A DNA stretch of 43,689 bases, taken from positions 1 to 43,689 of the IMG/VR virus record IMGVR_UViG_3300045988_038444; one strand, given 5' to 3'. The translations under genes and the position numbers were made by a program. This stretch comes from a virus (taxonomy: Duplodnaviria; Heunggongvirae; Uroviricota; Caudoviricetes). The notes under the pieces are model-generated. The model worked only from the letters and a program-made list of their open reading frames with translations. It did no database searches and was not told the DNA's origin. Below, in pieces: positions 16,146 through 41,378 of this stretch (positions within the stretch are counted from its first letter, which is position 1; each line of letters starts with the position of its first letter).

Positions 16146-16187
16146 TTTAAAATAATTCTTGACGGATTACACAATGATGTGTAACCT
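16146..16187 (+). promoter_or_regulatory. conserved sigma70 promoter cassette P1
   Basis: TTTAAAATAATTC + TTGACG (16159-16164), 17 nt, TAACCT (16182-16187). Confidence 0.7.
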
Positions 16188-16217
16188 ACAATCAACAAAA
16201 CAACGGAGAGTTACAAA

Positions 16218-16397
16218 ATGGCTACTTTCATCATTCTTTTCTTAATCGCTGCTGTATATCTGATCCCAGCACTCATCGCGATTAACGTTAAACATAAACA
16301 ACAAACAGCAATTATTTTACTTAACATCTTTGCGGGTTGGACATTCGTCGGTTGGTTAGGTGCGTTAATCTGGTCTGTGTTAAAAAGCGACAAATAA
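16218..16397 (+). CDS. small membrane protein, superinfection-immunity (Imm_superinfect)-like
   Basis: 59 aa, just below the track cutoff: MATFIILFLIAAVYLIPALIAINVKHKQQTAIILLNIFAGWTFVGWLGALIWSVLKSDK. It has two TMDs and a GWTxxGWxxALIW signature. RBS is GGAGAG. Confidence 0.65.
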   Translation: MATFIILFLIAAVYLIPALIAINVKHKQQTAIILLNIFAGWTFVGWLGALIWSVLKSDK

Positions 16398-16398
16398 G

Positions 16399-17310
16399 AT
16401 GAGTAGGAAACGTTTAACCACAGAAGAGTTTATCACGCGTGCCCGTGAAGTTCATGGGCACAAATACGATTACTCACTAGTGGAGTATTTGAATTGGCGC
16501 ACACCTGTGAAAATCATCTGTCCTATACATGGAGTGTTTGAACAAATTCCTAATAATCATTTAAAAGGACGCAAGTGTTTATTCTGTGCAGGAAATCAAC
16601 AATCAAATACCAATGAATTTATCACAAGGGGGCGCGAAGTTCATGGGGGTAAGTATGGTTATTCGTTGGTGAAATATAAAGACTCTCGGACCAAAGTGAA
16701 AATCATTTGTCCAATACACGGAATGTTTGAACAACGTCCATATAGTCACTTGCAGCAAAAAGCAGGTTGCCCACAATGTGCTTGGGAACAATTGTCTGAA
16801 CAAAGACGTTTATCCGCCGAAGAATTCATTACTCGTGCTCGCGAAGTTCACGGGGACCGTTACGACTATTCGTTGGTGGAGTATGTTAACAATTCCACCC
16901 CTGTAAAAATTATTTGTTCAGAACACGGTGTGTTTGAACAGACACCGGGCAATCACACATTTATGAAAGCTGGCTGTCCCCAGTGCGCTGAAACAGGTTT
17001 TAATCCGTCAGAACCCGGCACGTTATATGTACTCGCTGATGATAAACAGTATCCCACTCTGATTAAAATTGGTATTACAAACGACTTAAAACAGCGACTA
17101 CGACAACTACAACGACGAACTCCGCATCTTGTGGTTAAACTTGTATCGTATCCGTTCCCACATGGCGCTGACGCTTACAAACTGGAACAAGAGGTACACA
17201 AGGTCTTTCACGAACTTAATGCGCGTCTCAAAGGCTTTGACGGTGCTACAGAGTGGTTTAAATACTCTCCTGCAATCCTCGATTACATAAATGAAAAAGC
17301 CCGGAACTAA
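16399..17310 (+). CDS. T5orf172 (GIY-YIG-related) homing-endonuclease-like protein with three N-terminal zinc-ribbon repeats
   Basis: Three ~60-aa modules (EEFITRAREVHGxxYDYSLVEY...KIICPxHGxFEQxPxxH...GCPQCA). The C-terminus reads GTLYVL...IKIGITNDLKQRLRQL...ATEWF. Confidence 0.75.
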   Translation: MSRKRLTTEEFITRAREVHGHKYDYSLVEYLNWRTPVKIICPIHGVFEQIPNNHLKGRKCLFCAGNQQSNTNEFITRGREVHGGKYGYSLVKYKDSRTKVKIICPIHGMFEQRPYSHLQQKAGCPQCAWEQLSEQRRLSAEEFITRAREVHGDRYDYSLVEYVNNSTPVKIICSEHGVFEQTPGNHTFMKAGCPQCAETGFNPSEPGTLYVLADDKQYPTLIKIGITNDLKQRLRQLQRRTPHLVVKLVSYPFPHGADAYKLEQEVHKVFHELNARLKGFDGATEWFKYSPAILDYINEKARN

Positions 17311-17330
17311 CCGGGCTTATGTTTATTTTT
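17297..17330. terminator. bidirectional hairpin terminator at the end of the endonuclease gene
   Basis: AAGCCCGG-AACTAA-CCGGGCTT with a T-rich tail downstream and an A-run upstream. Confidence 0.55.
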
Positions 17331-18025
17331 CTTCATCTCGACAACACGTGCAGACCGCAATGCTGTTAACAATTTCCATAGGAACTGTACATCAACGTTG
17401 TACACCCGTGCGTAACGTTCACAGGCAACCCAATCACTATTTATCAAATCAAGATAAGCATACCAATAAAAAACAGCATCAGGTCGCAATTCAGGACGTT
17501 TCTGTACAACAACCGGAACAGATATACCACGTGCAGCCGCCCCTTGTGTAACCCAGTCCAGGTCGTCCCCGTCTGTCTTATCGTTCCACAAGAGGAAGTC
17601 GATCAGTTTTTTTCAATCTGTTTTTCCCATTCGTCCTGGAAGAATGCGGAATTAATTGCGAACTGAATAACACGGCTGTAGATCACCTGACCAAAACGTT
17701 CATCACTTAACAATTCAATAGCTTCTTCGACACTGAATGGTTCCGGTTTGTCATCTTCACCAATCAGTTTCCAGTCCAGCATAAGAACGTTAGCCACAAA
17801 CTTAACACCTTCTGGTGTATATTCCTGATTCCACAGTTTTTCAAAGAAGTTTTCAGACAACACACCGTTCTGTTTTACATAGTCCGCGACTGTTACGTTA
17901 TATACCTGGTTAGCGGTGTTCAGGTTCAACACGGTGATACTGAAATTTTCATTTAAAATCAGTTCAGCAGAAGACTTCAGCACCAGTGGAGAAAGTGCTT
18001 TTTTCAGATGGTCAAACTTTGACAT
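17307..18025 (-). CDS. tail assembly chaperone GT fusion via -1 programmed frameshift
   Basis: The G frame reads ...GAA AAA AAC TGA. A slip on A_AAA_AAC (plus coordinates 17612-17606) enters the ORF at 17307-17591, which has no RBS or ATG of its own. Confidence 0.6.
17603..18025 (-). CDS. tail assembly chaperone G
   Basis: 140 aa and acidic. Lies between the major tail and tape measure genes and ends at the slippery site. Confidence 0.7.
   Translation of the reverse strand: MSKFDHLKKALSPLVLKSSAELILNENFSITVLNLNTANQVYNVTVADYVKQNGVLSENFFEKLWNQEYTPEGVKFVANVLMLDWKLIGEDDKPEPFSVEEAIELLSDERFGQVIYSRVIQFAINSAFFQDEWEKQIEKN
17606..17612 (-). promoter_or_regulatory. -1 ribosomal frameshift slippery heptamer A_AAA_AAC
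   Basis: The run of 7 T on the plus strand (17607-17613) is A7 on the minus strand and fits X_XXY_YYZ in the G frame. The stop codon follows immediately. Confidence 0.6.
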
Positions 18026-18058
18026 GGTTTTTTTACCTTTTATGTAGTAGACGATTAG

Positions 18059-18087
18059 ATAGTAATAGTTCTGTACAAATTACGCAA
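18059..18087 (-). promoter_or_regulatory. candidate minus-strand promoter for the G/GT genes (TTGCGT, 17 nt, TACTAT)
   Basis: Read on the minus strand. Its -35 lies 5 nt beyond the AT block shared with plus-strand cassette P2. Confidence 0.35.
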
Positions 18088-18091
18088 GAGA

Positions 18092-18133
18092 TTTAAAATA
18101 ATTCTTGACGAATTACATCTGTTAAGGTATCTT
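18092..18133 (+). promoter_or_regulatory. conserved sigma70 promoter cassette P2
   Basis: TTTAAAATAATTC + TTGACG (18105-18110), 17 nt, TATCTT (18128-18133). Confidence 0.7.
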
Positions 18134-18165
18134 TAACTCAACGAAACGAACTGAGGGTAAGAGGG

Positions 18166-18790
18166 ATGGCGATTATTAACATGGGTTGGCATAGTTCTGT
18201 TTTTGAAGGAAATGTTAAACTCCTGGAAGGGGCATATAGTCCTATCCATCGTAATGATATTGGTGGCGATTACCCACCATCTTATTTTCTATACGAAACT
18301 GATCATGGGTGCTGTATCAAAGAACGTGAACGTAACGGTTACCATGATTCAGATTTTGAAATGTTAATATGGAACCCTGAAACAAAAAAGCGCTTCATGG
18401 TATACATTTGCAACTACCCGTGGTTGGTGTTATCCATGCTATGGTTCACGCCCAGATGCAACACCAGAAGTTTTAGAAGCATATAATATTTATGAACAAC
18501 AGCAAGAGGAAAAACGGCAACGTTATTGCAAAATAAAAAGAGTAAACAAGCAACGCAAACTGAACGCACAGTTTAGATTAATAGTACGTGAATTTGGTGT
18601 TGATCGCGAACAAGTTGAAAAACTTTATAAATTATATCACCCAGATATGTTCCCTGTATTTTGTAAACTTCTTAACAGTAATTTACGTTCTGATTTCCGT
18701 AAAAGTTTACGTAAACAACTAGTTGATTGGTTAAAAGGGAACGGTAAGTACGATAAACCATTTTCACCTAAACAAATTCAGTATTTATGA
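18166..18790 (+). pseudogene. frame-disrupted hypothetical gene (island gene inside the tail module)
   Basis: The frame-1 ORF runs 18166-18486. The +1 frame is open for 141 codons (18368-18790) with protein-like sequence and no start codon until near its end. The two frames overlap around an A6 run at 18384-18389. Confidence 0.6.
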
Positions 18791-18792
18791 AT

Positions 18793-18819
18793 AAAAAAGC
18801 CCCGGTTTAACGCCGGGGC
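18793..18819 (-). terminator. intrinsic terminator after the major tail gene (minus strand)
   Basis: GCCCCGG-N7-CCGGGGC. On the minus strand it is followed by T6 (plus-strand A6 at 18793-18798). Confidence 0.7.
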
Positions 18820-18839
18820 AACCACTACCAACCACCATG

Positions 18840-20297
18840 TCATGCTGTAGGCAGATATGGGAACAAGCTGAACCCAATCATAAAACCGATCGACTCTTCT
18901 TCGTGGGCGTTACCGCTAACAGTGACTTTCACTTTTTCGCCCGTCACAAGGTTTTTGGAACCGTCGCCCAGTGTCATCGCAGGAATGTTAACCACGATTG
19001 CACCGTCACCGTTTACCCCGGCAAGTTCGAAGTTGACTGTTGCGTTGTTACGGATCGCAGCCAGTACAGCACCGTCTGTCATCACCGTTTCAGTTTCCAT
19101 TGTGATTTCCAGGTTACCGATGTTGGTAAACGCAGCACCCATCACGCCCAGCACGTTTTCACCTGACACGTTGTTATTCACGGTGACAGTAACGTCTTTC
19201 AGGAACGTACTGAGTCCACTATCATCGATCCCGGTCAGTCGTACACGGTTCAGGTTCGTTACGGTGTTGTACGCTTCGTTAGCCACGAATTCAACATACC
19301 CGGAACCCGGCAGCGCGGTTTCTGACGGTGCTGATAAATCCTGTGCTACAAACGTCAGATCCATTGTCATTTTTTCAGTCAACGGTGCGTTGATCGTCAT
19401 CTGGTTTGCAGCTACAGCACGCGCATATTCATAAATAACAGGTGTCGTGTTGTAACGTACTTCCATTGTGTATTCAGTTTTAACGAACTCTGCAGAGTCA
19501 ACAGGAACGTTTCGAACAAAACTGGAAACAAATAAACGTACAGTTTTACCCGTACCTTCTTCAGTGGTGAATTCACTGTTAGCGAGAGTCAGAATATGAT
19601 CACCAACCATAGTCACACGGGCCATTTTACTGGTTACGGACTGTGTTAGACCATCAATATAAACATACTGTCCCGGTACTAAACCCAGTGTGGAAAAATC
19701 CAGGGTGGTAGACGTCAACTGACCATTACTGTTAACAGCGATTTCACCAGACGCTGCAGCATGCCCCACGAGATATAAACGAGCTTCAGCAGGCGGTGAC
19801 GCTTCGGCACTAAGCCCTGACACGTTGATAGCAGTAGTGGTACTATCAGCGCCTACAGTTTTCAAACCGTTGTTTGCAGCCAGTGTAAAACCTGTCGCAT
19901 AAACAAGAGCACCTTTAGGTAATGCCGCATCAAGAGTAGTAACGTTATAAGCATCAGCGCCAACACTGGTAACGTCAATATCAATTGCACCAGCACCGAC
20001 CCATTTACTATAAAGGAATCCGTCACCCCAGTAGCGGAACGTATCAAGTGTCAGGTCTGTCTGAAAGCCCGGTGCAACTTCAACGTTAGTTACCGTGCCT
20101 TTACGTGCAGATCGGTCCGTACTGATCGGTGTACGCTGAGTCTTTGTAATATCAGCACTGTAAGAACTGATTTCATTCGGTTGTTGAACCGTCCAGGGTG
20201 TACCAAAAACAGGTTCACAGACTTTTGCCACACTGAGTCGTGTTGCGTTTACATCAGTCGCAGGTGTTTGCGAACATTTAAAAATTGATTCAGCCAT
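18840..20297 (-). CDS. major tail protein
   Basis: 485 aa, Thr/Val/Gly/Ala-rich and beta-type composition. Lies upstream of G/GT and is followed by a strong terminator. Confidence 0.65.
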   Translation of the reverse strand: MAESIFKCSQTPATDVNATRLSVAKVCEPVFGTPWTVQQPNEISSYSADITKTQRTPISTDRSARKGTVTNVEVAPGFQTDLTLDTFRYWGDGFLYSKWVGAGAIDIDVTSVGADAYNVTTLDAALPKGALVYATGFTLAANNGLKTVGADSTTTAINVSGLSAEASPPAEARLYLVGHAAASGEIAVNSNGQLTSTTLDFSTLGLVPGQYVYIDGLTQSVTSKMARVTMVGDHILTLANSEFTTEEGTGKTVRLFVSSFVRNVPVDSAEFVKTEYTMEVRYNTTPVIYEYARAVAANQMTINAPLTEKMTMDLTFVAQDLSAPSETALPGSGYVEFVANEAYNTVTNLNRVRLTGIDDSGLSTFLKDVTVTVNNNVSGENVLGVMGAAFTNIGNLEITMETETVMTDGAVLAAIRNNATVNFELAGVNGDGAIVVNIPAMTLGDGSKNLVTGEKVKVTVSGNAHEEESIGFMIGFSLFPYLPTA

Positions 20298-20333
20298 TGT
20301 TCTAAGCCTCGTTTGATTGCAATCATTCGTAGT

Positions 20334-20759
20334 TTAATATATTTCTTCGTATTCGTAACTAAGTACGACGTTCGTTAAAAACCACGCGTTATCACGACCC
20401 TGATGACGAATATCAACACTCGTGTAAATTAACGGGCGGTCCTGCCAGACACCTTCAAATAATTTTGCAAGCCGATCCGCAATATCAATACTCAAAGTGT
20501 CCATGCCATACTGAGCAGGTGTGCGTACCTGTAAAAAAACGTTTCCTGTTCTTAAACGACGACGACAAACACCTTCCCCACCCAGCGTGGTTATTGTCCA
20601 CGGACCGGGATTGTGTGTCAGAATCAGACCGGGTTTTTCTGTAGTGTCATCAGGGAGTTGACCAGAAGCGATTGTAAATCTGTCAGGCGTAATTTCCACG
20701 GGGAGATTCGCCAGAACGCGATTATAAACAATTCCTGAAACATCTGAGAGTGTCATCAC
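20334..20759 (-). CDS. tail terminator / tail completion protein
   Basis: 141 aa. Lies immediately upstream of the major tail gene. Called on synteny. Confidence 0.45.
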   Translation of the reverse strand: MMTLSDVSGIVYNRVLANLPVEITPDRFTIASGQLPDDTTEKPGLILTHNPGPWTITTLGGEGVCRRRLRTGNVFLQVRTPAQYGMDTLSIDIADRLAKLFEGVWQDRPLIYTSVDIRHQGRDNAWFLTNVVLSYEYEEIY

Positions 20760-21184
20760 TGATTAAACCTCACCATTATTCCGGCTTTTAATATAGCACG
20801 TTCGACAAACCCGGAAGGTGTCTGTGTACTGCTACCACCATTGAGAACCCCAATGTAAGGAACGTTGTTAGTAATATGCAGTTCCTGACCATTAACTTTA
20901 ATACTGCTGATAGTGACTGTATCCTGTTCGATACGTGCTTTACTGGCTTCAACATTACCTGTTGGTGTATCAGGACTATTAGCGGGTTGCCCCTGATCGA
21001 ACCACCAGTTGTTGCTTGCCCAGCCACTCAATATTGGTGTACCATCAGGAGGCTCACTTATGAGTATGTTACGTAGTGTTAAAACATATCTAATGACTTG
21101 ACGATCCGTAAAATCTTGTAAGTCGGCTTTTATGTCTTTAAACACTCCAGTAATACGATTTATATCATTGATTTTGCTAGTCAT
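20756..21184 (-). CDS. neck protein (HK97 gp10-like head-tail joining)
   Basis: The start is taken at MTSKINDIN (ATG 21184). The track start at 21250 would run into the divergent endonuclease gene. Function called on synteny. Confidence 0.45.
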   Translation of the reverse strand: MTSKINDINRITGVFKDIKADLQDFTDRQVIRYVLTLRNILISEPPDGTPILSGWASNNWWFDQGQPANSPDTPTGNVEASKARIEQDTVTISSIKVNGQELHITNNVPYIGVLNGGSSTQTPSGFVERAILKAGIMVRFNQ

Positions 21185-21206
21185 TGACAAACCTAAAGGT
21201 AGAAAA

Positions 21207-22103
21207 ATGGGCGGTAAAAGACTAACCAAAGAACAACTAGAGCATAACATAAAAGATATTTGTCAATCAAAAAATTACAAATTTATAAAATGGAAAGACG
21301 GGTTTAAAAACAAAGAATCACGAATTATTTTATCTTGTGTTACACACGGGGAATGGGACACTAAATGTTATCATTTTTTGAATGGTTCTGGTTGTCCGAT
21401 CTGTGGTGGAACACGAACCACAAAAGGGTTAAGAATTGCACAGATTAAAGACAGTTTAACAAATTCTAAATCAAAGTTTATTAAATTTAAAACTAATTTT
21501 CAAAATGGAAATTCTGTTTGTTTGCTGAGCTGTATTGATCATGGTGGATGGGAGACAACAGTCAATAGACTAATCTTTACATCTGTTGATTGCCCGTTGT
21601 GTATAACGAATAGACAGAAAACTAAACAAGAACGAGAAATTGAAATAACAAATAGATGTAAAGAAACAGGGTTGTTTTTTAATAAGATATTCGACGAACA
21701 TCCGACATGGAAATCTAAAATATCATTAAAGTGTTCAACGCATGGTGATTTTGTTACAACAATTAATTCTTTTCTTAGTAAACAAAAAGGTTGTCCAAAC
21801 TGTAGTAAAACAGGGTTTAAAGCTGGTAAGTATGCAACACTTTATGTCTTGCGGTCCACATGCGGTCGTTACGTTAAAATAGGTATCAGTAATTGTGTAG
21901 AGCAAAGAATTAATACACTTCGTAGAAAAACACCATTTGATTTTCAAGTAATAGAAAAATTGAATGGACACGGGGCAACCATTCGTTCACTTGAAAAAGA
22001 TTTTCATTCTCATTTTGAATCTGCAGGATTAACCGGGTTCGATGGTTGTACAGAGTGGTTAAAATGGAATCCAAATATAACCACTCTGATACGGATGTTA
22101 TAG
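21207..22103 (+). CDS. T5orf172 (GIY-YIG-related) homing-endonuclease-like protein, second family member
   Basis: Three Cys/His modules (CVTHGEW...GCPICGG; CIDHGGW...DCPLCI; CSTHGDF...GCPNCS). The C-terminus reads ATLYVL...VKIGISNCVEQRINTL...CTEWLKW. Strongly AT-rich. Sits antisense between two neck genes. Confidence 0.75.
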   Translation: MGGKRLTKEQLEHNIKDICQSKNYKFIKWKDGFKNKESRIILSCVTHGEWDTKCYHFLNGSGCPICGGTRTTKGLRIAQIKDSLTNSKSKFIKFKTNFQNGNSVCLLSCIDHGGWETTVNRLIFTSVDCPLCITNRQKTKQEREIEITNRCKETGLFFNKIFDEHPTWKSKISLKCSTHGDFVTTINSFLSKQKGCPNCSKTGFKAGKYATLYVLRSTCGRYVKIGISNCVEQRINTLRRKTPFDFQVIEKLNGHGATIRSLEKDFHSHFESAGLTGFDGCTEWLKWNPNITTLIRML

Positions 22104-22481
22104 TTATACCGCTCCAACAGGATGAATAAATGCCATATCATCCCCTAACAATCGTGGGTTTTGACGATCAAGAAGGCGATATTCTTTACCACGTTCATCA
22201 ACCACAACATCACCCCGATCAGGAACAAATCGTGGTTCAAAACTCTGACTATCCATAATTACCATCGTTGTGGTTATTCTGGTCATAGTAGTCGGATCCC
22301 ACTTTTCTAATGGGTAAATATAACCACGACACGTATGCGATTCAGTAACGGTTGTACCCGGTAATGTAGGATTAGACGGGTTGGGAACTGTTATCACACG
22401 TTTTACCGTCAAATCCTCACCTACTTCAGCAAGTGCACGAGTAACACCTTTCAGGACACTTTGACGTTTGTCTGCCATCAC
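22104..22481 (-). CDS. head closure / head-tail adaptor protein
   Basis: 125 aa. Follows the connector-like gene. Called on synteny. Confidence 0.45.
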   Translation of the reverse strand: MMADKRQSVLKGVTRALAEVGEDLTVKRVITVPNPSNPTLPGTTVTESHTCRGYIYPLEKWDPTTMTRITTTMVIMDSQSFEPRFVPDRGDVVVDERGKEYRLLDRQNPRLLGDDMAFIHPVGAV

Positions 22482-22888: not shown

Positions 22889-22927
22889 GTGATCACCTGT
22901 GAGAAATGTTTTCGTTATATTAGCACG

Positions 22928-34780: not shown

Positions 34781-35092
34781 ATGAAACCGAATGAAAATAT
34801 TACACAACTGGATATTGCTTTTGGACCTAAAAACATTGCTGAATTTCTCCCGGCGATGGGTAGTATTCCGAAAGAATTTTTCGAAAATTCTAACCCGTGG
34901 AATCAGTGGGTCAGCAAATGGTTCTTCAACGGTCTGAAAGAATACGCAGTTGCTGTTGAAGGTGTGAACTTTAAAGATGCTCACGCGCATATCAAAGTGA
35001 TCCTGGGTAGTTTCGAACCTAAACACGAACATAAAATTGCCGGGTGTGCGTATCTCGCGTCAATGTGGTTTGTACCGGAGACAGTTAAATGA
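34781..35092 (+). CDS. hypothetical protein (103 aa)
   Basis: ATG 34781 follows GAAGGG. The track start (GTG 34772) lies within the RBS. Confidence 0.55.
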   Translation: MKPNENITQLDIAFGPKNIAEFLPAMGSIPKEFFENSNPWNQWVSKWFFNGLKEYAVAVEGVNFKDAHAHIKVILGSFEPKHEHKIAGCAYLASMWFVPETVK

Positions 35093-35235
35093 ATCCAAGA
35101 AATATTAGTCGCCCGTGGGTTGAAAATTCACGCTCCGATCACTTCGAACGCCGTAAAGCAGAAGTTAAACGCTTGGTTGCCGCTGGTCACACTAAAAAAC
35201 GTGCACAACAAATTGCTAAAAGTAAGGGGTTTTGA
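35089..35235 (+). CDS. hypothetical basic protein (48 aa)
   Basis: ATGA overlap with the upstream gene. Encodes MNPRNISRPWVENSRSDHFERRKAEVKRLVAAGHTKKRAQQIAKSKGF. Below the track cutoff. Confidence 0.4.
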   Translation: MNPRNISRPWVENSRSDHFERRKAEVKRLVAAGHTKKRAQQIAKSKGF

Positions 35236-35238
35236 ATT

Positions 35239-35397
35239 ATGGTATATGTTCTGATTTTCATTCTTAGTAGTAACATGATCGGTAGTGCTGAATTTAATAG
35301 TAAATCTGCATGTGAACAAGTAAACAAAGATATTCGTACAGCCGGACACCACGTGTGGGCGAAATGTTATCCGAAAGGTATGATAAACGGAGAATAA
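35239..35397 (+). CDS. small protein with a hydrophobic N-terminus (52 aa)
   Basis: MVYVLIFILSSNMIGSAEF... Fills the gap on the coding strand. Below the track cutoff. Confidence 0.4.
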   Translation: MVYVLIFILSSNMIGSAEFNSKSACEQVNKDIRTAGHHVWAKCYPKGMINGE

Positions 35398-35399
35398 TC

Positions 35400-35735
35400 A
35401 TGAATCATGTAAACGCTATTCGCTGTAATGATGAATATCAGTGTTCACACTGTGGTAAATCGTGGGATATCCACGAAGAAGCGCCAGATTGTAAAATGAC
35501 ACTGGTTAGTGCAGATGTGTATAAAACTGTCAATTATTTTGGTTTGTCTTTAACTGTTCCTGAAGATATTGACTATATAGCCACGAATAGTTACGGGGTT
35601 GTTTACGGGTATTTTAGTGAACCAGAACTATGTGATGAATTTTGGGATAATCATCGTTACGGTATCCCAAAAGTGAGGCTTGCAACTGTAAACCTACACG
35701 GGCTGAACTGGCGGGAGACTCTAAGAAAATGTTAA
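35400..35735 (+). CDS. hypothetical protein (111 aa) with an N-terminal CxxC pair
   Basis: ATG 35400 follows GGAGAA. The track start at 35355 overlaps the previous small ORF. Confidence 0.55.
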   Translation: MNHVNAIRCNDEYQCSHCGKSWDIHEEAPDCKMTLVSADVYKTVNYFGLSLTVPEDIDYIATNSYGVVYGYFSEPELCDEFWDNHRYGIPKVRLATVNLHGLNWRETLRKC

Positions 35736-35890
35736 TTGGCTATGTACTGGTGCTTGTTCTACACGGTGTGGCTATTGAACCTGTGACAGAACGTATTATG
35801 ACGTTCGAACAGTGTCAGGGTGCTTTACAAGCTGAACAGGCTTACAACCCTGATAAAAATTACGGGTGTGCTGAAGTTTATCGGGACTAA
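35729..35890 (+). CDS. small protein with a hydrophobic N-terminus (53 aa)
   Basis: MLIGYVLVLVLHGVAIEP... Overlaps the upstream stop. Same architecture as 35239-35397. Confidence 0.4.
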   Translation: MLIGYVLVLVLHGVAIEPVTERIMTFEQCQGALQAEQAYNPDKNYGCAEVYRD

Positions 35891-35977
35891 TTATTATGGA
35901 ATACATGTACATTGCTTTCTCACTTCTGTTAATGATTGTTGTCGTTATTACAACTGAGAAAAAAAGAACAAGGTGTG

Positions 35978-36172
35978 ATGGGTTTAGCAGTTGCTCTGAT
36001 TCGTGTTCTTTCAATCATGTTGCTGGTAACCAGTTTTTCAATTGCTTTTGACATCGTGGAATTACAAAGCGATTATTACGGTTTTGTGAAACTTCAACAT
36101 CAGTTGACATACGCCGTCATATTCGGTTTAGGTTCTGTTAGCCTCGCTGTTCTTTCATCTTTCAGACATTGA
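35978..36172 (+). CDS. small membrane protein (64 aa); may extend upstream to 35896 through an A7 run
   Basis: MGLAVALIRVLSIMLLVTSFSIAF...AVIFGLGSVSLAVLSSF has two TMDs. An upstream ORF from ATG 35896 encodes another TMD in the -1-offset frame. Confidence 0.45.
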   Translation: MGLAVALIRVLSIMLLVTSFSIAFDIVELQSDYYGFVKLQHQLTYAVIFGLGSVSLAVLSSFRH

Positions 36173-36198
36173 AAAAAAGCCCCGGACAGTTCCGGGGC
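36172..36198 (-). terminator. intrinsic terminator (minus strand), second of two after terL
   Basis: GCCCCGGA-N4-TCCGGGGC followed on the minus strand by T7. Confidence 0.65.
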
Positions 36199-36261: not shown

Positions 36262-36291
36262 CCTCTGAAAACGGGCGGGAATAATCCCGCC
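36262..36291 (-). terminator. intrinsic terminator immediately after terL (minus strand)
   Basis: On the minus strand: GGCGGGA-TTAT-TCCCGCC followed by CGTTTTC. Confidence 0.55.
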
Positions 36292-36299: not shown

Positions 36300-38063
36300 T
36301 TAAAAAATGTCACCGTATTCAGGAGTACCAACAGGATTCACACTACCAGTAAATGGTTCTTCGACAAATTCGGTGCGTTTTGGTGATAGTGCAATAACCG
36401 CAGCGTCGAAAAAGTTTGGTGACTTACTTCCGTTTGGTTTCTTGTCGATCACAATCTTCCCGGCACCGTTACTGGTATACGTTGGCTGACTTAACTCAGC
36501 TTCTAACCGTTGTGCGTTTTCCAGTGACGGATCAATCAGAATGATTTCGTCCGGATCCTGTGGTTGACCTTCCACATACCATTTATAAATTCGCTGACAA
36601 CGCAGGCGTAACGCCCACGATGCTTGTGCTTTATAATTTGAGAAATAATCTTTGTTTGATTTACGGTCTTTGTCACCAGGTTTTGTACCACCGATAATAT
36701 CACCACCCGGATCCACAACTTTTCCATTCGGTAACCACGGGCGCACACGGAAGCGTAAAATATCTTTCCGGTCATTTGCCGCTACTTTAACGCCTGTACC
36801 AACACCGTTAACTTCGTACCAGTATTCATCAACACCCAGCATATTAGCCATCGTCAACATTCCCGGTGCAGCCAGTTCAGCACCCCTGTGGTCAAGTTGC
36901 AGATGTGTCAGGAATACACCGTGAGCAATTACCAGCGCACTGGCATCTTCCCCACCGTCTGCTGCGTCCTGTCCGGCAATACGTTGACCTGTTGGTGTAA
37001 GTAGTCCATTAACTTTGCGCCATTCTGTGTCACGGAAAGCGTCAAAAGCAGCGCGTACCCATTCAGCTTTAATCAACACCCCCTGAACAGCAGCGGCATA
37101 ATCGCGGTCAACTTCCTGTGCGAAAATATGCTGTAAACCTTTTTCAGCGAACGATTGTTTTTCTCGCTTATACCATTCATCGTCTTTAGCCGGGTGATCA
37201 CGCCAGTCAAGAACCATTACACGCAATTTACCACGGGGTAATTTCTTGCCCGGTTCCCATTCCAGACCAGCTTTACGATTACGATAAAAAACGTTACCAA
37301 CACCGTTAACTGAACTGATGTCGATACGAACGTTGGTGTTAGCTGACAACGACGCTTCAATCAGTTCAGGACGGTCTACGTGTGCCGCTTCGTCCAAGAA
37401 GTAGACAGATTTACGACCACCACGACCGATGTTGTCACCAGCTTCACCAGTAATTGTTGCACCGTTTTCAGGGTTGATACATTTCATGTAAACCAGATGG
37501 TCTTTTTCACGCAGACCAACAGGACGTAATTCCGGTGGTAATGCGCGGATAATCTGGCGAATCTTTTCAAAAATACTATCCGGGTCACCCAGTTTATCGA
37601 CAAGCTGCTCTTTACGTGACCCCCAGCCAACTGAAGAACCAGGACGATACAGCCACGCCCACACGGATAAACCACAGGCTACCCAGGTCGCACCATAGTC
37701 TCGTGATTTTTCCCAAAGTCCTTTTTCTTTGTCTTCAAGCGCTTCATAAACAAACTGAACCATATCGATCTGACGTTCGAAAAGGCAGAAAGGCATGTTG
37801 GGTGGATATTCAGTACCGACGTTACGCGGGTCGTAAGTAAACGCCCAGTCGAGGATAAACGCTACCGGGTTTGTTTCGTAATACTTTTTCAGCACCGGGA
37901 CAATTGCCCGATCCGTGCGCATACGGTTTAACAGGTTAATACGGTCAATGTAACACTGCTTGTAATCCGGGCGTGGCTGACCTTTTCGCCAGATACGTTC
38001 GTCATTTGCGTAGGCATCACGCCAGCGCGGGTAATTATGAATATTTCCAGTAAACTTATTCAT
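36300..38063 (-). CDS. terL: terminase large subunit
   Basis: 587 aa. N-terminal ATPase region (...EKSRDYGATW..., VYFLDEAAHV Walker-B-like) and a C-terminal nuclease-type region. Confidence 0.88.
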   Translation of the reverse strand: MNKFTGNIHNYPRWRDAYANDERIWRKGQPRPDYKQCYIDRINLLNRMRTDRAIVPVLKKYYETNPVAFILDWAFTYDPRNVGTEYPPNMPFCLFERQIDMVQFVYEALEDKEKGLWEKSRDYGATWVACGLSVWAWLYRPGSSVGWGSRKEQLVDKLGDPDSIFEKIRQIIRALPPELRPVGLREKDHLVYMKCINPENGATITGEAGDNIGRGGRKSVYFLDEAAHVDRPELIEASLSANTNVRIDISSVNGVGNVFYRNRKAGLEWEPGKKLPRGKLRVMVLDWRDHPAKDDEWYKREKQSFAEKGLQHIFAQEVDRDYAAAVQGVLIKAEWVRAAFDAFRDTEWRKVNGLLTPTGQRIAGQDAADGGEDASALVIAHGVFLTHLQLDHRGAELAAPGMLTMANMLGVDEYWYEVNGVGTGVKVAANDRKDILRFRVRPWLPNGKVVDPGGDIIGGTKPGDKDRKSNKDYFSNYKAQASWALRLRCQRIYKWYVEGQPQDPDEIILIDPSLENAQRLEAELSQPTYTSNGAGKIVIDKKPNGSKSPNFFDAAVIALSPKRTEFVEEPFTGSVNPVGTPEYGDIF

Positions 38064-38094
38064 GGTTATCGGCCCGTTTGTAACTGTTCTGTAT

Positions 38095-38122
38095 AGTTTA
38101 CCACGGGTGATTGGTGGTGACA
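38095..38122 (-). promoter_or_regulatory. candidate minus-strand promoter for terL (TGTCAC, 16 nt, TAAACT)
   Basis: Same geometry and the same CCCGTGGTAAACT core as the region upstream of the tape measure gene. Back-to-back with P7. Confidence 0.35.
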
Positions 38123-38126: not shown

Positions 38127-38168
38127 TTTAAAATAATTCTTGACAGATTGCAGAAGTGGTGTCAGACT
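38127..38168 (+). promoter_or_regulatory. conserved sigma70 promoter cassette P7
   Basis: TTTAAAATAATTC + TTGACA (38140-38145), 17 nt, CAGACT. Confidence 0.6.
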
Positions 38169-38200
38169 CTGATTATCAATTGAACAGGAGTAACACAGGT

Positions 38201-38533
38201 ATGAATATTAAAGACCACAACGGATTATTTAAAGAAGTTCTTACCGTTCGTCTTGAACGTAATGCACAACCTGAATACGGGCAAAATGCCGTTTACTGTG
38301 TTCATTTTAAAGACACTACATTTTCATATTTTGAAGATGATGTAGACACTGTTGAAATTGGTGGCGACCTTTCAATATTCGTAAAACTTTATAATACTGA
38401 ACTTATGACTTACATGCTTCAAACGGTCCTGAATACGTTCGGTCGCACTGACGGGGTGTGTGTCACTACTCAGACAAAACAACAGGTGTTGCAAAACATC
38501 CGTGAACTACTGGAGCGCGTCGACCATGGGTGA
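38201..38533 (+). CDS. hypothetical protein (110 aa)
   Basis: ATG 38201 lies downstream of AGGAG. The track start at 38156 falls inside the promoter. Confidence 0.55.
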   Translation: MNIKDHNGLFKEVLTVRLERNAQPEYGQNAVYCVHFKDTTFSYFEDDVDTVEIGGDLSIFVKLYNTELMTYMLQTVLNTFGRTDGVCVTTQTKQQVLQNIRELLERVDHG

Positions 38534-38708
38534 TAAACCAAGTCTGACACCGTGGCGGATCCGTTTAAATGGTGATGATATTAGTACCATTTATGCTTAT
38601 CAGGATAAACCACGAAATTTAGCGCTGGGGCAATACGCGCAATTATTCATGTTGTCGTCCTGGCAAATTGTGCAACGCACACTGGAAAAGATTAAAAGGG
38701 GTTGTTGA
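38526..38708 (+). CDS. hypothetical protein (60 aa)
   Basis: The start MGDKPSLTPW overlaps the upstream stop (ATGGGTGA). Confidence 0.5.
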   Translation: MGDKPSLTPWRIRLNGDDISTIYAYQDKPRNLALGQYAQLFMLSSWQIVQRTLEKIKRGC

Positions 38709-38860
38709 TGATCATGAAACGCGTCGCCATTTCTGGTGTGGCCATTTTAATTCTTATAATAGTGTTTAGCATATTAATAGATAAAGGTGTGGATAATTTA
38801 TGTTTGCTTAATTTTATCAGTGTTACTTCTTTTTACCTTGGGTTATGGTGTTCAAAATAA
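38708..38860 (+). CDS. small membrane protein (50 aa)
   Basis: MIMKRVAISGVAILILIIVFSILI... TGATG overlap upstream. Below the track cutoff. Confidence 0.4.
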   Translation: MIMKRVAISGVAILILIIVFSILIDKGVDNLCLLNFISVTSFYLGLWCSK

Positions 38861-39249
38861 TGTGGAACATCTGTCATAAATCCGGGCGAGTACTGTTCAC
38901 TACGAATGATGAACGGACCGCTATGAATCGTGCTAAATATGGGTGGAGGGTTAAAAAAGTGGATGACCGTTACGAAATTGCAAAACAGCACGGAATGTCG
39001 ATAGAGTTCATCGACTGGTTTTGGGAGAACAAGAAAGCCAGTTTAGGTAGTGTCTGGTTTATCACTATGAGTACAATGTGGGAAGGGTGGAAAGGCGCGT
39101 TAGGTGATCCCGTGGGTGAAATTGTTGAAAGACCGTGTGAAGCAGAACTACGTTCTCCCGGTGAAACATACAAATACCTGCGTGGAAAACTCAACATGGA
39201 ACGTATGCCAGTAGGTACAAAGTTTTACGCCAGCCGAAACCCCTGTTAA
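38860..39249 (+). CDS. hypothetical protein (129 aa)
   Basis: ATG 38860 overlaps the upstream stop (TAATG). ATG 38845 is an alternative start. Confidence 0.5.
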   Translation: MWNICHKSGRVLFTTNDERTAMNRAKYGWRVKKVDDRYEIAKQHGMSIEFIDWFWENKKASLGSVWFITMSTMWEGWKGALGDPVGEIVERPCEAELRSPGETYKYLRGKLNMERMPVGTKFYASRNPC

Positions 39250-39320
39250 ATTATTGTAAAACCCATACCATTCTTACCAGTTCCGCACTACCCTGAAACT
39301 ATCAAACAGGAGTGCGGAAC

Positions 39321-39527
39321 ATGTTCAGATACGTTTTAAAATTACTCGCCATTATTGCAACATGGCTAATCATACAGTCCGGGTATGACCTGCGTGTTCG
39401 TAACCAATGTTCAGACTATCAACGCATTACACGAACTGCGACAATCTACAGTCACGGTATTTGTTACGCGGCAGACAGTGACGGACAGTTTAAAATAATT
39501 CTTGACGGTTTACACATCATCAGATAG
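39321..39527 (+). CDS. small protein with an N-terminal signal/TMD (68 aa)
   Basis: AGGAG, 8 nt, then ATG 39321. Encodes MFRYVLKLLAIIATWLIIQSG... Its last codons lie inside promoter cassette P8. Confidence 0.5.
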   Translation: MFRYVLKLLAIIATWLIIQSGYDLRVRNQCSDYQRITRTATIYSHGICYAADSDGQFKIILDGLHIIR

Positions 39528-39530
39528 ACT
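39489..39530 (+). promoter_or_regulatory. conserved sigma70 promoter cassette P8
   Basis: TTTAAAATAATTC + TTGACG (39502-39507), 17 nt, TAGACT (39525-39530). Confidence 0.65.
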
Positions 39531-39562
39531 TCAGTTTGTGTAAAACAACTGGAGTTATCACC

Positions 39563-39829
39563 ATGTTTAAAACTGGTCAACACGTAGAAGTCACCAGTCC
39601 ACGACTGTTAGAAGTTCTCGCACGTCGCAAATCTAAACCGTTCGGCACTGTTGTAGCGGTCGATCCGCAAGCTGAATACCCGGTTAAAGTTCGCATCACT
39701 GACGATACAGGGTTTCAAATCCCCTTCACGTTCAACGGTGAACAGTGCGATTACACTTTCTCATTTACTATGAACGGTCATCATGACCATCGTAGCCTGA
39801 CACCTGATTTAAGAGTGGTGAATGTATGA
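39563..39829 (+). CDS. hypothetical protein (88 aa)
   Basis: ATG 39563 follows GGAG. The track start at 39536 is upstream of the RBS. Confidence 0.55.
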   Translation: MFKTGQHVEVTSPRLLEVLARRKSKPFGTVVAVDPQAEYPVKVRITDDTGFQIPFTFNGEQCDYTFSFTMNGHHDHRSLTPDLRVVNV

Positions 39830-40068
39830 TGAGTACGAAAACAACAATTATCAACTGTTTTCGGAAAGTTACTGGGTACGATCCGAATGTAATTATCACC
39901 GCCAACGGTTTGTATTATTCGGTAGATAATTATGGTCTGAACAATACTTTATGGAGTGTTCCACCACAACAAATTATTACTGACCATAAACAACCACATC
40001 GTAAAACAGGTATTGCAAAAGCCCGACGCGATGCGAAGAAAAGAAGGAACCGGAAATTAAACGGTTGA
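39826..40068 (+). CDS. hypothetical protein (80 aa) with a basic C-terminus
   Basis: ATGA overlap upstream. Confidence 0.55.
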
Positions 40069-40102
40069 TTATCTCATTCACAAATTAAACAGGAAAACAA
40101 AT

Positions 40103-41017
40103 ATGAACTTCTTTAAAAACGCTATTATTTATCGTCTGACTAATCCTATGGCACTAATGGCCCAGTTGCCAACACTGGAAGACAGCCTGTGTGCGTTTCA
40201 ATTCAATCCATGTGGTTCACAGGATATGGCGCGTACTGGTTGGGTTCCGGCAACTGAACAACATCATACGCTGGTTCACCAGGCTAATGGGCAATATCTG
40301 CTGACCATCCAGAAACAGGAAAAGATTATTCCTGGTCCGGTCATTAAACAGCATCTGAACGCGCGAATCGCCAAACTGGAAGCGGAACAGGCGCGTAAAC
40401 TGAAGAAAACAGAGAAAGATAGCCTGAAAGATGAAGTATTGCACAGTCTGTTACCACGAGCATTCGTTAAAAACAGTCGTACACAGTTGTGGATTGATAT
40501 CACTAGCGGGTTGATCGTGGTTGATGCGTCCAGTGCTAAACGGACTGAAGACGCATTAGCACTATTGCGTAAATCCCTGGGTAGTCTGCCAGTCGTCCCA
40601 CTGACAACTGAAAACCCTGTTGAACTGACAACAACGGAGTGGGTACGTTCAGGAAACGCGCCAACAGGTTTCACAATGGGTGATTCTGCGGAATTGAAAG
40701 CAATCCTGACTGACGGCGGTGTTGCACGCGTTAAAAAACAGGATTTAACCAGTGATGAAATAGCCACGCATATTGAAGCAGGAAAAGTTGTTACAAAACT
40801 GGCTCTGAACTGGCTGCAGCGGGTAACGTTTACGCTAACTGACAGCATGACGTTAAACCGTGTGAAATTCTGCGACGGGTTGCTCGACCAGAACGACGAT
40901 ATCGATCGTGAAGACAGTCTGACACGATTTGACGCTGATTTTGTACTAATGACAGGTGAACTTCAGGCGCTGATCAAACAACTTATCACTGCTTTGGGTG
41001 GGGAGGCTAAACGATGA
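40103..41017 (+). CDS. rdgC: recombination-associated protein RdgC homolog
   Basis: 304 aa, colinear with E. coli RdgC as I recall it: FKNxxxYRL, [16 protein letters not shown], [31 protein letters not shown], [16 protein letters not shown], [25 protein letters not shown], DIDREDxxxRFDADFxLMTGEL, GLGGEA. Confidence 0.9.
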
Positions 41018-41346
41018 GAACAGAACAGGAACGTATTATTCAGTGGTTATGTTCTGGTGAAACCGGACTAAGCTCTAAAACGATGGTCTGCATTCACACG
41101 GGTAATGAAATGGGTTACGGCTGGGAGTTTAGAGCACCCTTTGACGTTTCTGATTTTCGCCGTTGTTGGTTCCTGGTTGAAGCTGTGCCAGAAATCAGAA
41201 ACAGTTTTCCGTTGATTGCTGAAAAGTGTCCGGCGTTTAAAGGTGTGATTGAAAACTGGGACGTTATTAGCGCAGCTTATGAACGTGAACGCGGATCCGG
41301 TAAATGTCCTGAAACGTATCGGTTACTGAAAGAAAGTTTAAAATAA
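41014..41346 (+). CDS. hypothetical protein (110 aa)
   Basis: ATGA overlap with rdgC. Its last codons lie inside promoter cassette P9. Confidence 0.55.
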
Positions 41347-41378
41347 TTCTTGACGGGTTGCACAAGGAAGTGTAATAT
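41337..41378 (+). promoter_or_regulatory. conserved sigma70 promoter cassette P9
   Basis: TTTAAAATAATTC + TTGACG (41350-41355), 17 nt, TAATAT (41373-41378). Confidence 0.7.

Follow-up and report, generated by a model that had tools for sequence, protein, structure and literature searches.

A putative early-promoter cassette heads plus-strand accessory islands among the virion genes of a 9NA-like siphophage

Introduction

Lambdoid morons are reported to consist of a promoter, a gene and a terminator inserted between late genes. Each moron has a different promoter and is usually oriented as the late operon. The A1-A3 promoters of T7 and the early promoters of T5 are host-polymerase promoters clustered at one genome end, and E. 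coli rrnB P1 is an example of a promoter with an UP element. In the T4-type phages RB49 and phi1, PeSL (promoter-early stem-loop) cassettes dot the small non-essential ORFan genes with numerous strong early promoters that are sigma70-like and nearly identical to one another. Each PeSL unit is compact, joining a terminator stem-loop to a promoter, and the units occupy a hyperplastic early region of their own (Arbiol et al. 2010, PMC2839356). We consider PeSL cassettes and lambdoid morons the closest analogues of the locus described here.

The window, the whole stretch of 43,689 nucleotides analysed here, comes from a virulent 9NA-like siphophage of E. coli/Salmonella with about 95% identity to the Escherichia phages KarinMuster_Bas82 and PJ16. 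The original prediction was that nine near-identical plus-strand promoter cassettes break the late genes into a strand-alternating mosaic. As an observation it was partly confirmed, and its interpretation was partly supported. The layout is real and group-wide, being common to 9NA, Sasha, Bas82, PJ16, PDP46 and two Klebsiella phages; the mechanism is not new but a familiar kind of phage regulatory cassette.

Results

Copies and anatomy of the cassette

The exact 15-mer AAAATAATTCTTGAC occurs nine times on the plus strand, starting at 16149, 18095, 27745, 31346, 32488, 34711, 38130, 39492 and 41340, which agrees with the predicted copies once the leading TT(T) is added. Allowing up to two mismatches yields 11 matches where 0.29 would be expected, a number that none of 100 shuffles reached. 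All copies had been placed on the plus strand; nine are, but the minus strand holds a further exact copy, the tenth (27454-27440), directed into the head-gene block. Each copy belongs to a cassette of about 70-75 bp with an A/T block, TTGAC(G/A), ATT(A/G)CA, a 17-18 bp spacer, a TAnnnT -10, a leader, a ribosome-binding site and ATG. The leader, which carries the ribosome-binding site, is about 25 nt long, uniform and A- and C-rich. Full sigma70 promoter geometry, ribosome-binding site and ATG are present in 10/10 copies and each faces a gene, with a uniform 30-35 nt from the -10 end to ATG.

TTGAC(G/A) followed by the predicted 17 nt and -10-like hexamer was found at all plus-strand copies, except that the spacer is 18 nt in P4. 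P1 (16146-16217, ATG 16218) carries the A/T block, TTGACG, 17 nt, TAACCT, leader and ribosome-binding site. TTGACG and 17 nt are followed by TATCTT in P2 (18092-18165, ATG 18166) and P3 (27742-27814, ATG 27815), and by TATGCT in P6 (34709-34780, ATG 34781). TTGACA is found in P4 (31343-31419; 18 nt, TAACAT; ATG 31420 of dUTPase) and P7 (38127-38200; 17 nt, CAGACT; ATG 38201). The remaining three are embedded in preceding ORFs, as had been noticed. P5 (32485-32556; -10 TAACCT; ATG 32557) overlaps the last codons (...VYDNLK*) of ORF 32246-32494, P8 (39489-39562; -10 TAGACT; ATG 39563) lies within the 3' end of ORF 39312-39527, where it is read as QFKIILDG, and P9 (41337-41412; -10 TAATAT; ATG 41413) overlaps the last codons (...KESLK*) of ORF 41014-41346. 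The minus-strand cassette P10 (27386-27457) has the exact core, TTGACG, 17 nt and TACCCT, and its ATG (27385) begins a gene (26975-27385) that continues into the protease, scaffold and capsid genes. P10 and P3 form a 61-nt inverted repeat that is 85% complementary. No terminator lies between P10 and the head genes, a misfit with a purely early role. P10 and the cassette variants on the late strand in relatives contradict a strict division into early plus and late minus strands.

A scan of related genomes recovered 67 distinct copies in eight genomes, including Klebsiella phages at only about 78% identity, and the 26-bp core was essentially invariant among them. The consensus block is TTTAAAATAATTCTTGAC-RR-ATT-R-CA, with T at -27 in 67/67, T at -26 in 66/67, C at -24 in 65/67 and A at -23 in 65/67 copies. 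Copies differ from one another in the spacer, the -10 and the leader. Of the 67, 54 have their best -10-like hexamer at 17 bp and 12 have it at 18 bp. Alignments of orthologous junctions again showed a fixed core and a variable spacer, -10 and leader. Relatives carry 8-12 copies each, upstream of small-gene blocks, and in 9NA, Sasha and Carvaje the exonuclease/SSB/DNA polymerase operon is also cassette-headed.

Accessory islands and terminators

Six cassette-headed plus-strand islands interrupt the virion genes, in line with the predicted minimum of six. A homing endonuclease gene at about 21208-22103 forms a seventh plus-strand insertion, one that lacks a cassette. Island 1 (16218-17310) encodes a superinfection-immunity protein (16218-16398) and a DUF723/T5orf172 homing endonuclease (16399-17310). 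Island 2 (18166-18790) holds an ORFan of 106 aa that appears to be a truncated, N-terminal portion of a family of 207-aa proteins. Island 3 (27815-29112) contains a 22-aa ORF, a 182-aa protein with an anti-repressor-like N-terminus (27888-28436) and small ORFans. Islands 4 and 5 (31420-33249, P5 internal) carry dUTPase and four ORFans, Island 6 (34781-36172) at least four ORFans, and Islands 7, 8 and 9 (38201-41604, P8 and P9 internal) ORFans and RdgC (40103-41017). Among the island genes, dUTPase, RdgC, Imm_superinfect and the T5orf172 endonuclease belong to early or accessory types, and the others are ORFans.

Plus-strand terminators close 4/6 island blocks. Bidirectional hairpins lie where Island 1 converges with the G/GT chaperone genes (17297-17318) and where Islands 4 and 5 converge with the portal gene (33255-33276); plus-strand terminators end Island 6 (36274-36291) and, ahead of terS, Islands 7-9 (41615-41628). 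A search for plus-strand terminators detected none at Islands 2 and 3, and no hairpin was found beside the internal cassettes. The virion blocks have minus-strand terminators 3' of terL (36179-36198; 8-pair stem with 7 G-C pairs and a T7 run as tail) and of the tail tube gene (18799-18819; no T-run on the plus strand), both strong, and a terminator also follows the major capsid gene.

Candidate promoters of the virion genes

P1, P2, P4, P6 and P7 stand back-to-back with the minus-strand tape measure, G chaperone, 31312 gene, portal and terL, respectively, as the original prediction said. It also rightly described hexamers at a fixed 5 nt from the AT block at these junctions: TGTCGC, TTGCGT, TGTCAA, TGCAAA and TGTCAC are each 5 nt from TTAAAAT. 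Their proposed role as minus-strand -35 elements fared unevenly: the hexamers are conserved at G (TTGCGT) and portal (TGCAAA), but not at the other junctions. At the 31312 gene, TGTCAA was rejected as a -35 because just 30 nt separate the A/T block from the ATG, and inspection of this junction revealed no recognisable promoter of the block's own.

The virion blocks have conserved -10-like elements of their own in 4/5 back-to-back spacers in all relatives examined. The candidate terL promoter (38095-38103, minus strand) has the extended -10 TGGTAAACT 31 nt before ATG 38063. This element is unchanged in 6/6 aligned relatives and its -35 position is not conserved; the hexamer there drifts from TGTCAC to TGTTAC, TGTAAG and TACCAG. 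The candidate tape-measure promoter (16115-16123, minus strand) has the extended -10 TGTTAAACT 31 nt before ATG 16083, and is kept in Sasha, where no cassette adjoins. Candidates for G (18059-18087, minus strand; TTGCGT, 17 nt, TACTAT) and portal (34678-34703, minus strand; TGCAAA ... TATAAC) are conserved in 7/7 and 8/8 aligned genomes, respectively. The pattern CGTGnTAWAHT occurs six times, on the late strand every time, against 0.86 expected. The layout had been said to demand either read-through of antisense islands or re-initiation at every junction. The conserved -10-like elements, together with the terminators of the virion blocks, suggest that re-initiation is more likely.

Homology breakpoints

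Comparison with seven relatives, which are mutually non-independent, gave 172 homology breakpoints. Of these, 31 were no more than 25 nt from a cassette, where 5.6% would be expected, and 22 were equally close to a terminator, where 2.3% would be expected; as distinct clusters, 16/78 were at cassettes and 8/78 at terminators. Part of this enrichment is to be expected, since mosaic junctions tend to fall at gene boundaries. Whole units are also cleanly present or absent. In PJ16 the entire Island 2 unit is absent, the gap ending at 18088 and 18789, and nothing corresponding to Island 1 is present at that position in Sasha, 9NA, Carvaje or PDP46. Islands 7-9 have nearly no counterpart in Sasha, where alignment is absent from 38157 to 41337 and homology returns at 41642. 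These breaks at cassette edges and terminators suggest that cassettes may also mark junctions of module exchange. The homing endonuclease of Island 1 could account for the presence or absence of that island without recombination between cassettes.

Discussion

The repeats are probably the standard early/accessory-gene promoter of 9NA-like phages, heading autonomous, exchangeable units. The cassettes would be read by host sigma70 RNA polymerase; in favour of this, none of the seven related records has an annotated RNA polymerase or sigma factor. The A/T block (about -48 to -37) may be an UP-like contact for the alpha subunit, and with the near-consensus -35 TTGAC(G/A) it would compensate a mediocre -10 (TAnnnT at 17-18 bp), which is weak in several copies (CAGACT, TACCCT). 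The uniform leader and ribosome-binding site would couple the promoter to the first gene of the block. Each cassette would thus launch a moron-like unit of small accessory genes, and most units would stop at an intrinsic terminator, often bidirectional, on meeting a virion block. The virion blocks would then not be one long operon; most may restart from promoters in the same short spacers, of the extended -10 type for terL and tape measure and of the -35/-10 type for G and portal. As the core is identical at all copies and in all relatives, it may double as a homology patch, and recombination between cassettes and at terminators would swap, insert or delete whole islands. In support of this reading, chimeric cassettes exist and one cassette subtype is present at three different loci.

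It is very improbable that the repeats have no promoter function and serve solely as boundaries or recombination sites, or remain from a mobile element. Breakpoints do cluster at them, and cassette subtypes occupy different loci in different genomes. However, the fixed distance to an ATG with a ribosome-binding site, and a core made of a near-consensus -35 plus A/T block, argue for a promoter; the copies have neither terminal inverted repeats nor target-site duplications, and core conservation far exceeds what a homology patch needs. An early promoter leaves the invariant ATT(A/G)CA unexplained, because at -28 to -23 it is, to our knowledge, no RNA polymerase contact. The core may instead be primarily an operator, at which a phage or host protein binds ATT(A/G)CA or an imperfect dyad, TAATTC-TTGAC-GRATTA, centred on the -35, and switches some ten units on or off jointly, which is compatible with promoter function. 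We regard this as rather unlikely. ATT(A/G)CA matches the -35 in invariance over the 67 copies, the dyad is symmetric at 6/8 positions, TTACAC-N6-GTGTAA palindromes span the spacer and -10 in a subset of copies, and in 5/5 genomes scanned the DNA polymerase gene is followed by conserved degenerate copies (TTTTAAATAATTCTATAC) in which the -35 is destroyed. Nevertheless, among about 30 island proteins, Pfam and PHROGs revealed no DNA-binding regulator except the anti-repressor-like N-terminus in Island 3, the dyad is weak (chance probability about 0.04 by a rough estimate that allows for the choice of centre), and the identical core also heads a toxin-antitoxin pair in Klebsiella prophages, which belong to another type and would lack a 9NA-specific factor.

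Two further alternatives concern the late strand. The original prediction proposed that one A/T block could serve as an UP element or factor-binding site for both the plus-strand early and minus-strand late promoters. As an UP element it would make the two directions share or compete for alpha C-terminal domains. The block lies at about -38 to -52 relative to the candidate minus-strand promoters and, read on the minus strand, equals the rrnB P1 UP element at 12/12 consecutive bases (AATTATTTTAAA); therefore, a shared UP element is geometrically plausible. The conserved -10-like elements lie 22-27 nt past the block in 4/5 divergent spacers, and the distance from block to terL -10 is constant within 1 nt across genomes. 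Against this, the tape-measure promoter of Sasha has no neighbouring cassette and so does not need the block; terL and tape measure have promoters of the extended -10 type; the gap from block to -35 position is 3-4 nt versus 7 nt in rrnB P1; the 31312 gene leaves no room for a promoter; and P3, P5, P8, P9 and P10 carry the block with no divergent late promoter. We consider sharing less likely than not. Considerably less probable is that a small number of distant late promoters express the virion genes, mainly through read-through or antitermination, the islands being crossed antisense and the junction -10s incidental. The 31312 block, with no recognisable promoter of its own, fits this, and hairpins within the late strand (30143-30166, 23833-23856 and 22935-22953) would suit antitermination. 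Yet the -10s of terL, tape measure, G and portal are kept at 78-95% identity while the island side turns over, CGTGnTAWAHT keeps to the late strand, strong terminators follow terL and tail tube, two convergent junctions hold bidirectional terminators, and no antiterminator is annotated among the relatives.

Like rrnB P1, the cassette has an A/T-rich block just upstream of the -35 with 12 consecutive bases shared, but this 12-mer is inverted relative to the plus-strand promoter and its offset to the -35 differs. The cassettes resemble the early promoters of T7 and T5 in their apparent host-polymerase type, strong upstream elements and repeated use to launch putative early genes; unlike these, they are interleaved with structural genes across about 25 kb. 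As with lambdoid morons, the islands appear to be autonomous units, each with a promoter and in most cases a terminator of its own, set between conserved virion genes and cleanly present or absent among relatives. The differences are that the present phage is virulent, uses a single promoter sequence some ten times and has most of its islands in antisense. With PeSL they share scattered near-identical promoters and indels or replacements between close relatives that are bounded by cassettes. In contrast to PeSL, the promoter and terminator are separate, at opposite ends of an island, and the cassettes are placed within the cluster of virion genes, for the most part in antisense.

Phage identity and genome layout

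The window covers the greater part of a 9NA-like siphophage genome (Nonanavirus/Sashavirus). Over bases 16000-32000, it is ~95-96% identical to the Escherichia phages KarinMuster_Bas82 (Bas82), PJ16 and PDP46, ~93% identical to the Salmonella phages Sasha, Sergei and Solent, ~83% identical to 9NA and ~78% identical to the Klebsiella phages Carvaje and VLCpiS10a. The minus strand carries virion and lysis genes, and the plus strand carries the DNA polymerase block and islands of small genes. Annotations of 9NA, Bas82, Sasha, Carvaje, PJ16, PDP46 and VLCpiS10a show the same strand alternation. According to Casjens et al. (2014), gene expression of 9NA-like phages had not yet been investigated, and promoters go unmentioned in that paper. 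ARAGORN found no tRNA in the window, and an Rfam search returned no family at threshold.

Several features of the layout stand apart from the cassettes. The holin gene (minus) and a 999-aa tail-fibre gene (plus) share the start coordinate 6165 with no spacer; the latter encodes a virion component from the 'early' strand and has no cassette. A noncoding stretch of ~400 nt (23062-23470, minus) separates the capsid-proximal gene from the next late gene. Inside it lies the tRNA T-arm-like sequence GGTTCGATTCCAACCGCCA, for which ARAGORN and Rfam gave nothing, and ~190 nt of the stretch (23160-23353) are unique to the window. Klebsiella relatives have a tRNA-Ser at this place, with which the stretch shares no homology. 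At 21170-22110, a second CapR/DUF723/T5orf172 homing endonuclease gene (ORF ~21208-22103, plus) lies antisense between two neck/tail genes, with no cassette and no obvious promoter. This insertion is missing in all seven relatives examined, and the ORF is a paralogue of the endonuclease gene at 16399-17310 in the first plus-strand island.

Cassette copies and their anatomy

The core AAAATAATTCTTGAC is present without mismatch at all nine plus-strand positions of the original prediction, 16146, 18092, 27742, 31343, 32485, 34709, 38127, 39489 and 41337 (cassettes P1 to P9). That prediction placed every copy on the plus strand, but a tenth exact copy, P10, lies on the minus strand at 27454-27440 within a cassette at 27386-27457. 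P10 and P3 form a 61-nt inverted repeat that is 85% complementary, with arms 290 nt apart. With up to two mismatches allowed, the core matches 11 times where 0.29 matches would be expected, a count that no shuffle out of 100 attained. In a position-weight scan, the ten copies scored 38-60 bits, everything else scored 14 or less, and the best shuffle scored 5 bits. Chance and low complexity as sources of the repeats are thus excluded by the match counts, the shuffles and the scan. We discarded a two-mismatch match on the minus strand (21331-21317), which lies inside homing endonuclease coding sequence and has a position-weight score below 8, and a weak match at 11895 (minus), also weak in Bas82, which falls within a conserved coding region and was treated as not meaningful.

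The consensus in the window reads TTTAAAATAATTC TTGACG gATTaCAc N9 TAnncT; next come a leader rich in A and C (TcAaCaAAAcaA), aGG and ATG. The predicted -35/-10 geometry holds in 10/10 copies: TTGAC(G/A) is followed by a -10-like hexamer at 17 nt (18 in P4). TAnnnT occurs at 17-18 bp in nine of the ten, P7 having CAGACT. In all ten, a ribosome-binding site precedes the ATG, which lies 30-35 nt beyond the -10 hexamer. A set of 67 distinct cassette copies, gathered from eight genomes, has G (52 copies) or A (13 copies) as the last base of the -35 hexamer, and the spacing to the best -10-like hexamer is 17 bp (n=54), 18 bp (n=12) or 16 bp (n=1). These 67 copies are near-invariant from TTT through the CA at -23 (A -28, 63/67; T -27, 67/67; T -26, 66/67; A or G at -25; C -24, 65/67; A -23, 65/67), and conservation drops sharply beyond -23. 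Alignments of the orthologous junctions G/P2, portal/P6 and terL/P7 show the same sharp edge. The other positional claims were also borne out: P5, P8 and P9 overlap the last codons of the preceding genes (VYDNLK and stop, QFKIILDG, KESLK and stop), five copies are arranged back-to-back with minus-strand genes, and the minus-strand hexamers lie 5 nt past TTAAAAT. Overall, the predicted repeat family is real and largely accurately described, with one minus-strand copy missed.

That the cassettes are promoters is well supported by this geometry together with the comparative evidence. RNA polymerase is not known to contact bases at the promoter-spacer positions that hold the invariant ATT(A/G)CA, an element for which the promoter reading does not account. 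A second, overlapping promoter that uses TT(A/G)CA as its -35 was rejected, as inspection of the copies found no -10 at 16-18 nt. With Zeng et al. 2019 (PMC6819911), the principal genomic study of these phages, outside the search, the literature searched contained no 5' ends for 9NA-like phages, no mention of the core sequence and no link between 9NA or Nonanavirus and early promoters. At 70 bp, the cassette is a candidate for a short, strong promoter in enterobacteria.

Two further elements resemble or adjoin the cassettes. A degenerate cassette, TTTTAAATAATTCTATACGGTTTACC (2489-2506, minus), whose -35 is destroyed, lies in the short spacer 3' of the DNA polymerase gene, on the strand opposite to that gene; the sequence is unchanged at the same site in 5/5 genomes scanned (window, 9NA, Bas82, Sasha and Carvaje), and the similar AATAATTCTATAC is found upstream of 9NA gp46. 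In the interval between P10 and P3, two 53-nt direct repeats (27632-27747), 72% identical and 63 nt apart, each contain a palindrome, CTAATACA-CGTTC-TGTATTAG and GCAGTTAGTACA-CGTTC-TGTATTAACTGC. At that position, 9NA, Sasha and Carvaje each have two copies of another repeat, which is palindromic in 9NA. From their sequence, the repeats have the appearance of a phage-specific operator pair. The first gene of any size beyond them (27888-28436) encodes a protein with an anti-repressor-like N-terminus.

Genes headed by the cassettes

The plus-strand cassettes head accessory genes, numbered here as islands 1 to 9; islands 4 and 5 form one block, as do islands 7 to 9. Island 1 encodes a superinfection-immunity protein and a DUF723/T5orf172 homing endonuclease, island 2 a truncated ORFan, and island 3 the protein with the anti-repressor-like N-terminus and small ORFans. 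Islands 4-5 encode a dUTPase and four ORFans, island 6 ORFans, and islands 7-9 ORFans and RdgC. Pfam and PHROGs searches of the island proteins found no regulators but for the anti-repressor-like N-terminus at 27888-28436. The exonuclease/SSB/DNA polymerase operon of 9NA, Sasha and Carvaje is headed by a cassette of its own, and in these phages another cassette precedes the small genes 3' of the primase gene. Because of this gene content, an early role of the cassette-driven units is suggested. The strict division into early and late genes by strand that had been proposed is supported only in part. The gene of island 2 (18166-18790) matches just residues 1-76 of a 207-aa PHROG family; Sasha gp43 has the full family length of 207 aa, and in the window a separate 47-aa ORF follows. 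This gene looks like a frameshifted or decaying copy.

By sequence, 6/6 island blocks have a promoter and 4/6 have plus-strand terminators, which the scans placed at the far ends of the islands. Terminator-like hairpins lie at convergent island ends at 17297-17318 and 33255-33276 (both bidirectional) and at 36274-36291 and 41615-41628 (both plus); the plus-strand scan found none for islands 2 and 3. Minus-strand terminators were located at 36198-36179, past terL, at 18819-18799, past the tail tube gene, and at 23856-23833, past the major capsid gene. From this analysis, the 9NA-like group gains a concrete, testable transcription map, in which about ten identical host-type promoters would serve accessory genes, separate restart promoters would serve virion blocks, and terminators would insulate convergent units.

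Candidate late-strand promoters and the A/T block

The original prediction assigned a minus-strand -35 to each of the five divergent spacers. A minus-strand -10-like element is kept in every relative examined at four of the five, and a conserved -35-like hexamer is found at the G chaperone and portal genes only. The G gene is preceded by TTGCGT, 17 nt and TACTAT, and the portal gene by TGCAAA ... TATAAC. At terL, TGGTAAACT lies 31 nt ahead of the ATG and is invariant in 6/6 relatives aligned, while the proposed -35, TGTCAC, drifts to TGTTAC, TGTAAG and TACCAG. At the 31312 gene, just 30 nt separate the ATG from the A/T block, and the ribosome-binding site of this gene almost abuts the block in the Klebsiella phages; judged from this spacing, an independent promoter does not fit there. 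The tape-measure gene, whose true start is ATG 16083, is preceded by TGTTAAACT. Its promoter appears to need no A/T block, because Sasha has TGTTAAACT upstream of this gene without an adjoining cassette. The layout had been thought to demand either read-through of the islands or re-initiation at every junction, and these sequences favour re-initiation at most junctions.

An extended -10 with a CG prefix, CGTGnTAWAHT, occurs six times, on the late strand only (16115-16125, 16427-16437, 20790-20800, 30168-30178, 37225-37235 and 38095-38105, all minus), against 0.86 expected, and 0/100 shuffles reached six. Four of the six sit 30-34 nt ahead of late-gene start codons, and the motif is a candidate late-promoter motif. 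The perfect extended -10 TGATATAAT is found 30 nt before the head-morphogenesis gene and 42 nt before the holin gene. The copy at the lysis genes (6208-6216) falls inside the tail-fibre coding sequence. At the head-morphogenesis gene (30137-30178, minus), TGATATAAT leads directly into a 9-bp hairpin, beyond which come a T6 run and the start codon, so that a promoter and a terminator-like stem-loop are fused in ~40 nt; this resembles the PeSLs of T4-type phages, but on the late strand. A palindrome, AACTGT-ACAGA-ACAGTT (38078-38100, minus), overlaps the terL -10 and start region; it has one mismatch in the window and is kept in all relatives, and GTACAGAAC recurs within the G-chaperone promoter spacer. 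This palindrome may be a regulator site for late promoters.

The A/T block TTTAAAATAATT lies at about -48 to -37 of the cassette promoter, the position expected of an UP element. Read on the minus strand, 12 consecutive bases, AATTATTTTAAA, are identical to the rrnB P1 UP element, and this 12/12 match is in inverted orientation relative to the plus-strand promoter. The rrnB P1 sequence had been confirmed beforehand by 100% identity in 5,426/5,426 complete E. coli genomes; the inspected copy has murI on one side and a 16S rRNA gene on the other. Relative to the candidate minus-strand promoters of four divergent spacers (terL, tape measure, G and portal), the A/T block occupies roughly -38 to -52. 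Because of this placement, divergent promoters may share the block as an UP element, as had been proposed.

Cassettes as probable junctions of exchange

Breakpoints were taken as the ends of unaligned gaps when the window was aligned with seven relatives. Of 172 gap ends, 31 fall no more than 25 nt from a cassette interval, a zone that takes in 5.6% of positions, and 22 fall equally close to a terminator hairpin (2.3% of positions), or 16 and 8 of 78 when counted as distinct clusters; the seven comparisons share ancestry and are not independent, and mosaic junctions tend to fall at gene boundaries anyway. Eight of the nine plus-strand cassettes match a junction in at least one comparison. Homology with Bas82, PDP46, 9NA and Carvaje ends at 18159-18168, just past the P2 leader, and is back where the terminator lies, at 18785-18789; in PJ16, the entire P2 unit, 18088 to 18789, is missing. 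With Sasha and PDP46, homology ends at 38156-38157, past the P7 leader, and that with Sasha is back at 41642, the content of islands 7-9 (38157-41641) being replaced in this phage. In Sasha, 9NA, Carvaje and PDP46, nothing that corresponds to island 1 lies at the same position.

The cassettes themselves are also mosaic. P3 of PJ16 is a chimera of a P10-type spacer and a P3-type leader, and the subtype GGATTACACAAGGACGTGTAACCTACAA... occupies the tape-measure junction and the P5 position, while PDP46 has it at the terL junction. The sequence on the late-gene side of the terL junction can be aligned in all genomes, and beyond the CA at -23 the sequences are unrelated. Breakpoints and chimeras are compatible with recombination inside the shared core. 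For island 1, the homing endonuclease could be the mover, without cassette recombination. Exchange of islands between cassette and terminator would explain why the mosaicism of the group is concentrated at these places.

In IMG/VR, the 23-nt pattern is multi-copy solely on 53-61 kb contigs of this phage type. Outside the family, single copies were found on a set of Klebsiella prophage-like contigs (~26-41 kb), each placed ahead of a DUF1902/HicA toxin-antitoxin pair that adjoins a tail-fibre gene. The 26-bp core with matching promoter geometry was seen in contig 2588254173_000002 (4740-5264) and about nine similar contigs. This distribution suggests that the cassette moves between phage types, and its use by prophage morons suggests that it works with host polymerase alone. 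A general bacterial promoter was considered and rejected: 596 Gb of species-representative genomes gave eight scattered single matches, against ~4 by chance. Because this is about the chance number, we regard the cassette as a phage element rather than a host promoter.

Comparison with known systems

T4 AsiA disables sigma region 4. A comparable switch could operate here, in a small siphovirus that encodes neither an RNA polymerase nor a sigma factor, although we consider this combined reading unlikely. The 26-bp core would comprise an UP element, a -35 and a factor-binding site, either ATT(A/G)CA or a dyad over the -35, through which a putative factor would switch all cassette units together. 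Early units would depend on the -35 and UP elements, and at least some late promoters (terL, tape measure, head morphogenesis and lysis) would be of the extended -10 type with no conserved -35, a split that would suit a switch disabling sigma region 4. The core would also act as a portable module for recombination, one that Klebsiella prophage morons share. The dependence of early promoters on -35 and UP elements, and the extended -10 type of late promoters, form a testable hypothesis.

The closest described system is PeSL of T4-type phages, in which strong sigma70-like early promoters are repeated among ORFans and recombination between PeSLs drives modular shuffling (Arbiol 2010, PMC2839356). 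As in that system, breakpoints between relatives cluster at the cassettes. In PeSL, however, a terminator stem-loop is fused to the promoter, and the 9NA-like cassettes are not PeSLs because this fusion is absent. P5, P8 and P9 have no adjoining terminator-like hairpin; the 71 nt upstream fold to -9 to -14 kcal/mol with no T-run. By analogy, the 9NA-like cassettes may work similarly to PeSLs. The islands are also like lambdoid morons in being inserted units, present or absent among relatives with boundaries at the unit edges, but they reuse one promoter and are mostly antisense to virion genes. In summary, the cassettes are a new, well-defined case of a familiar phage regulatory cassette rather than a new principle.
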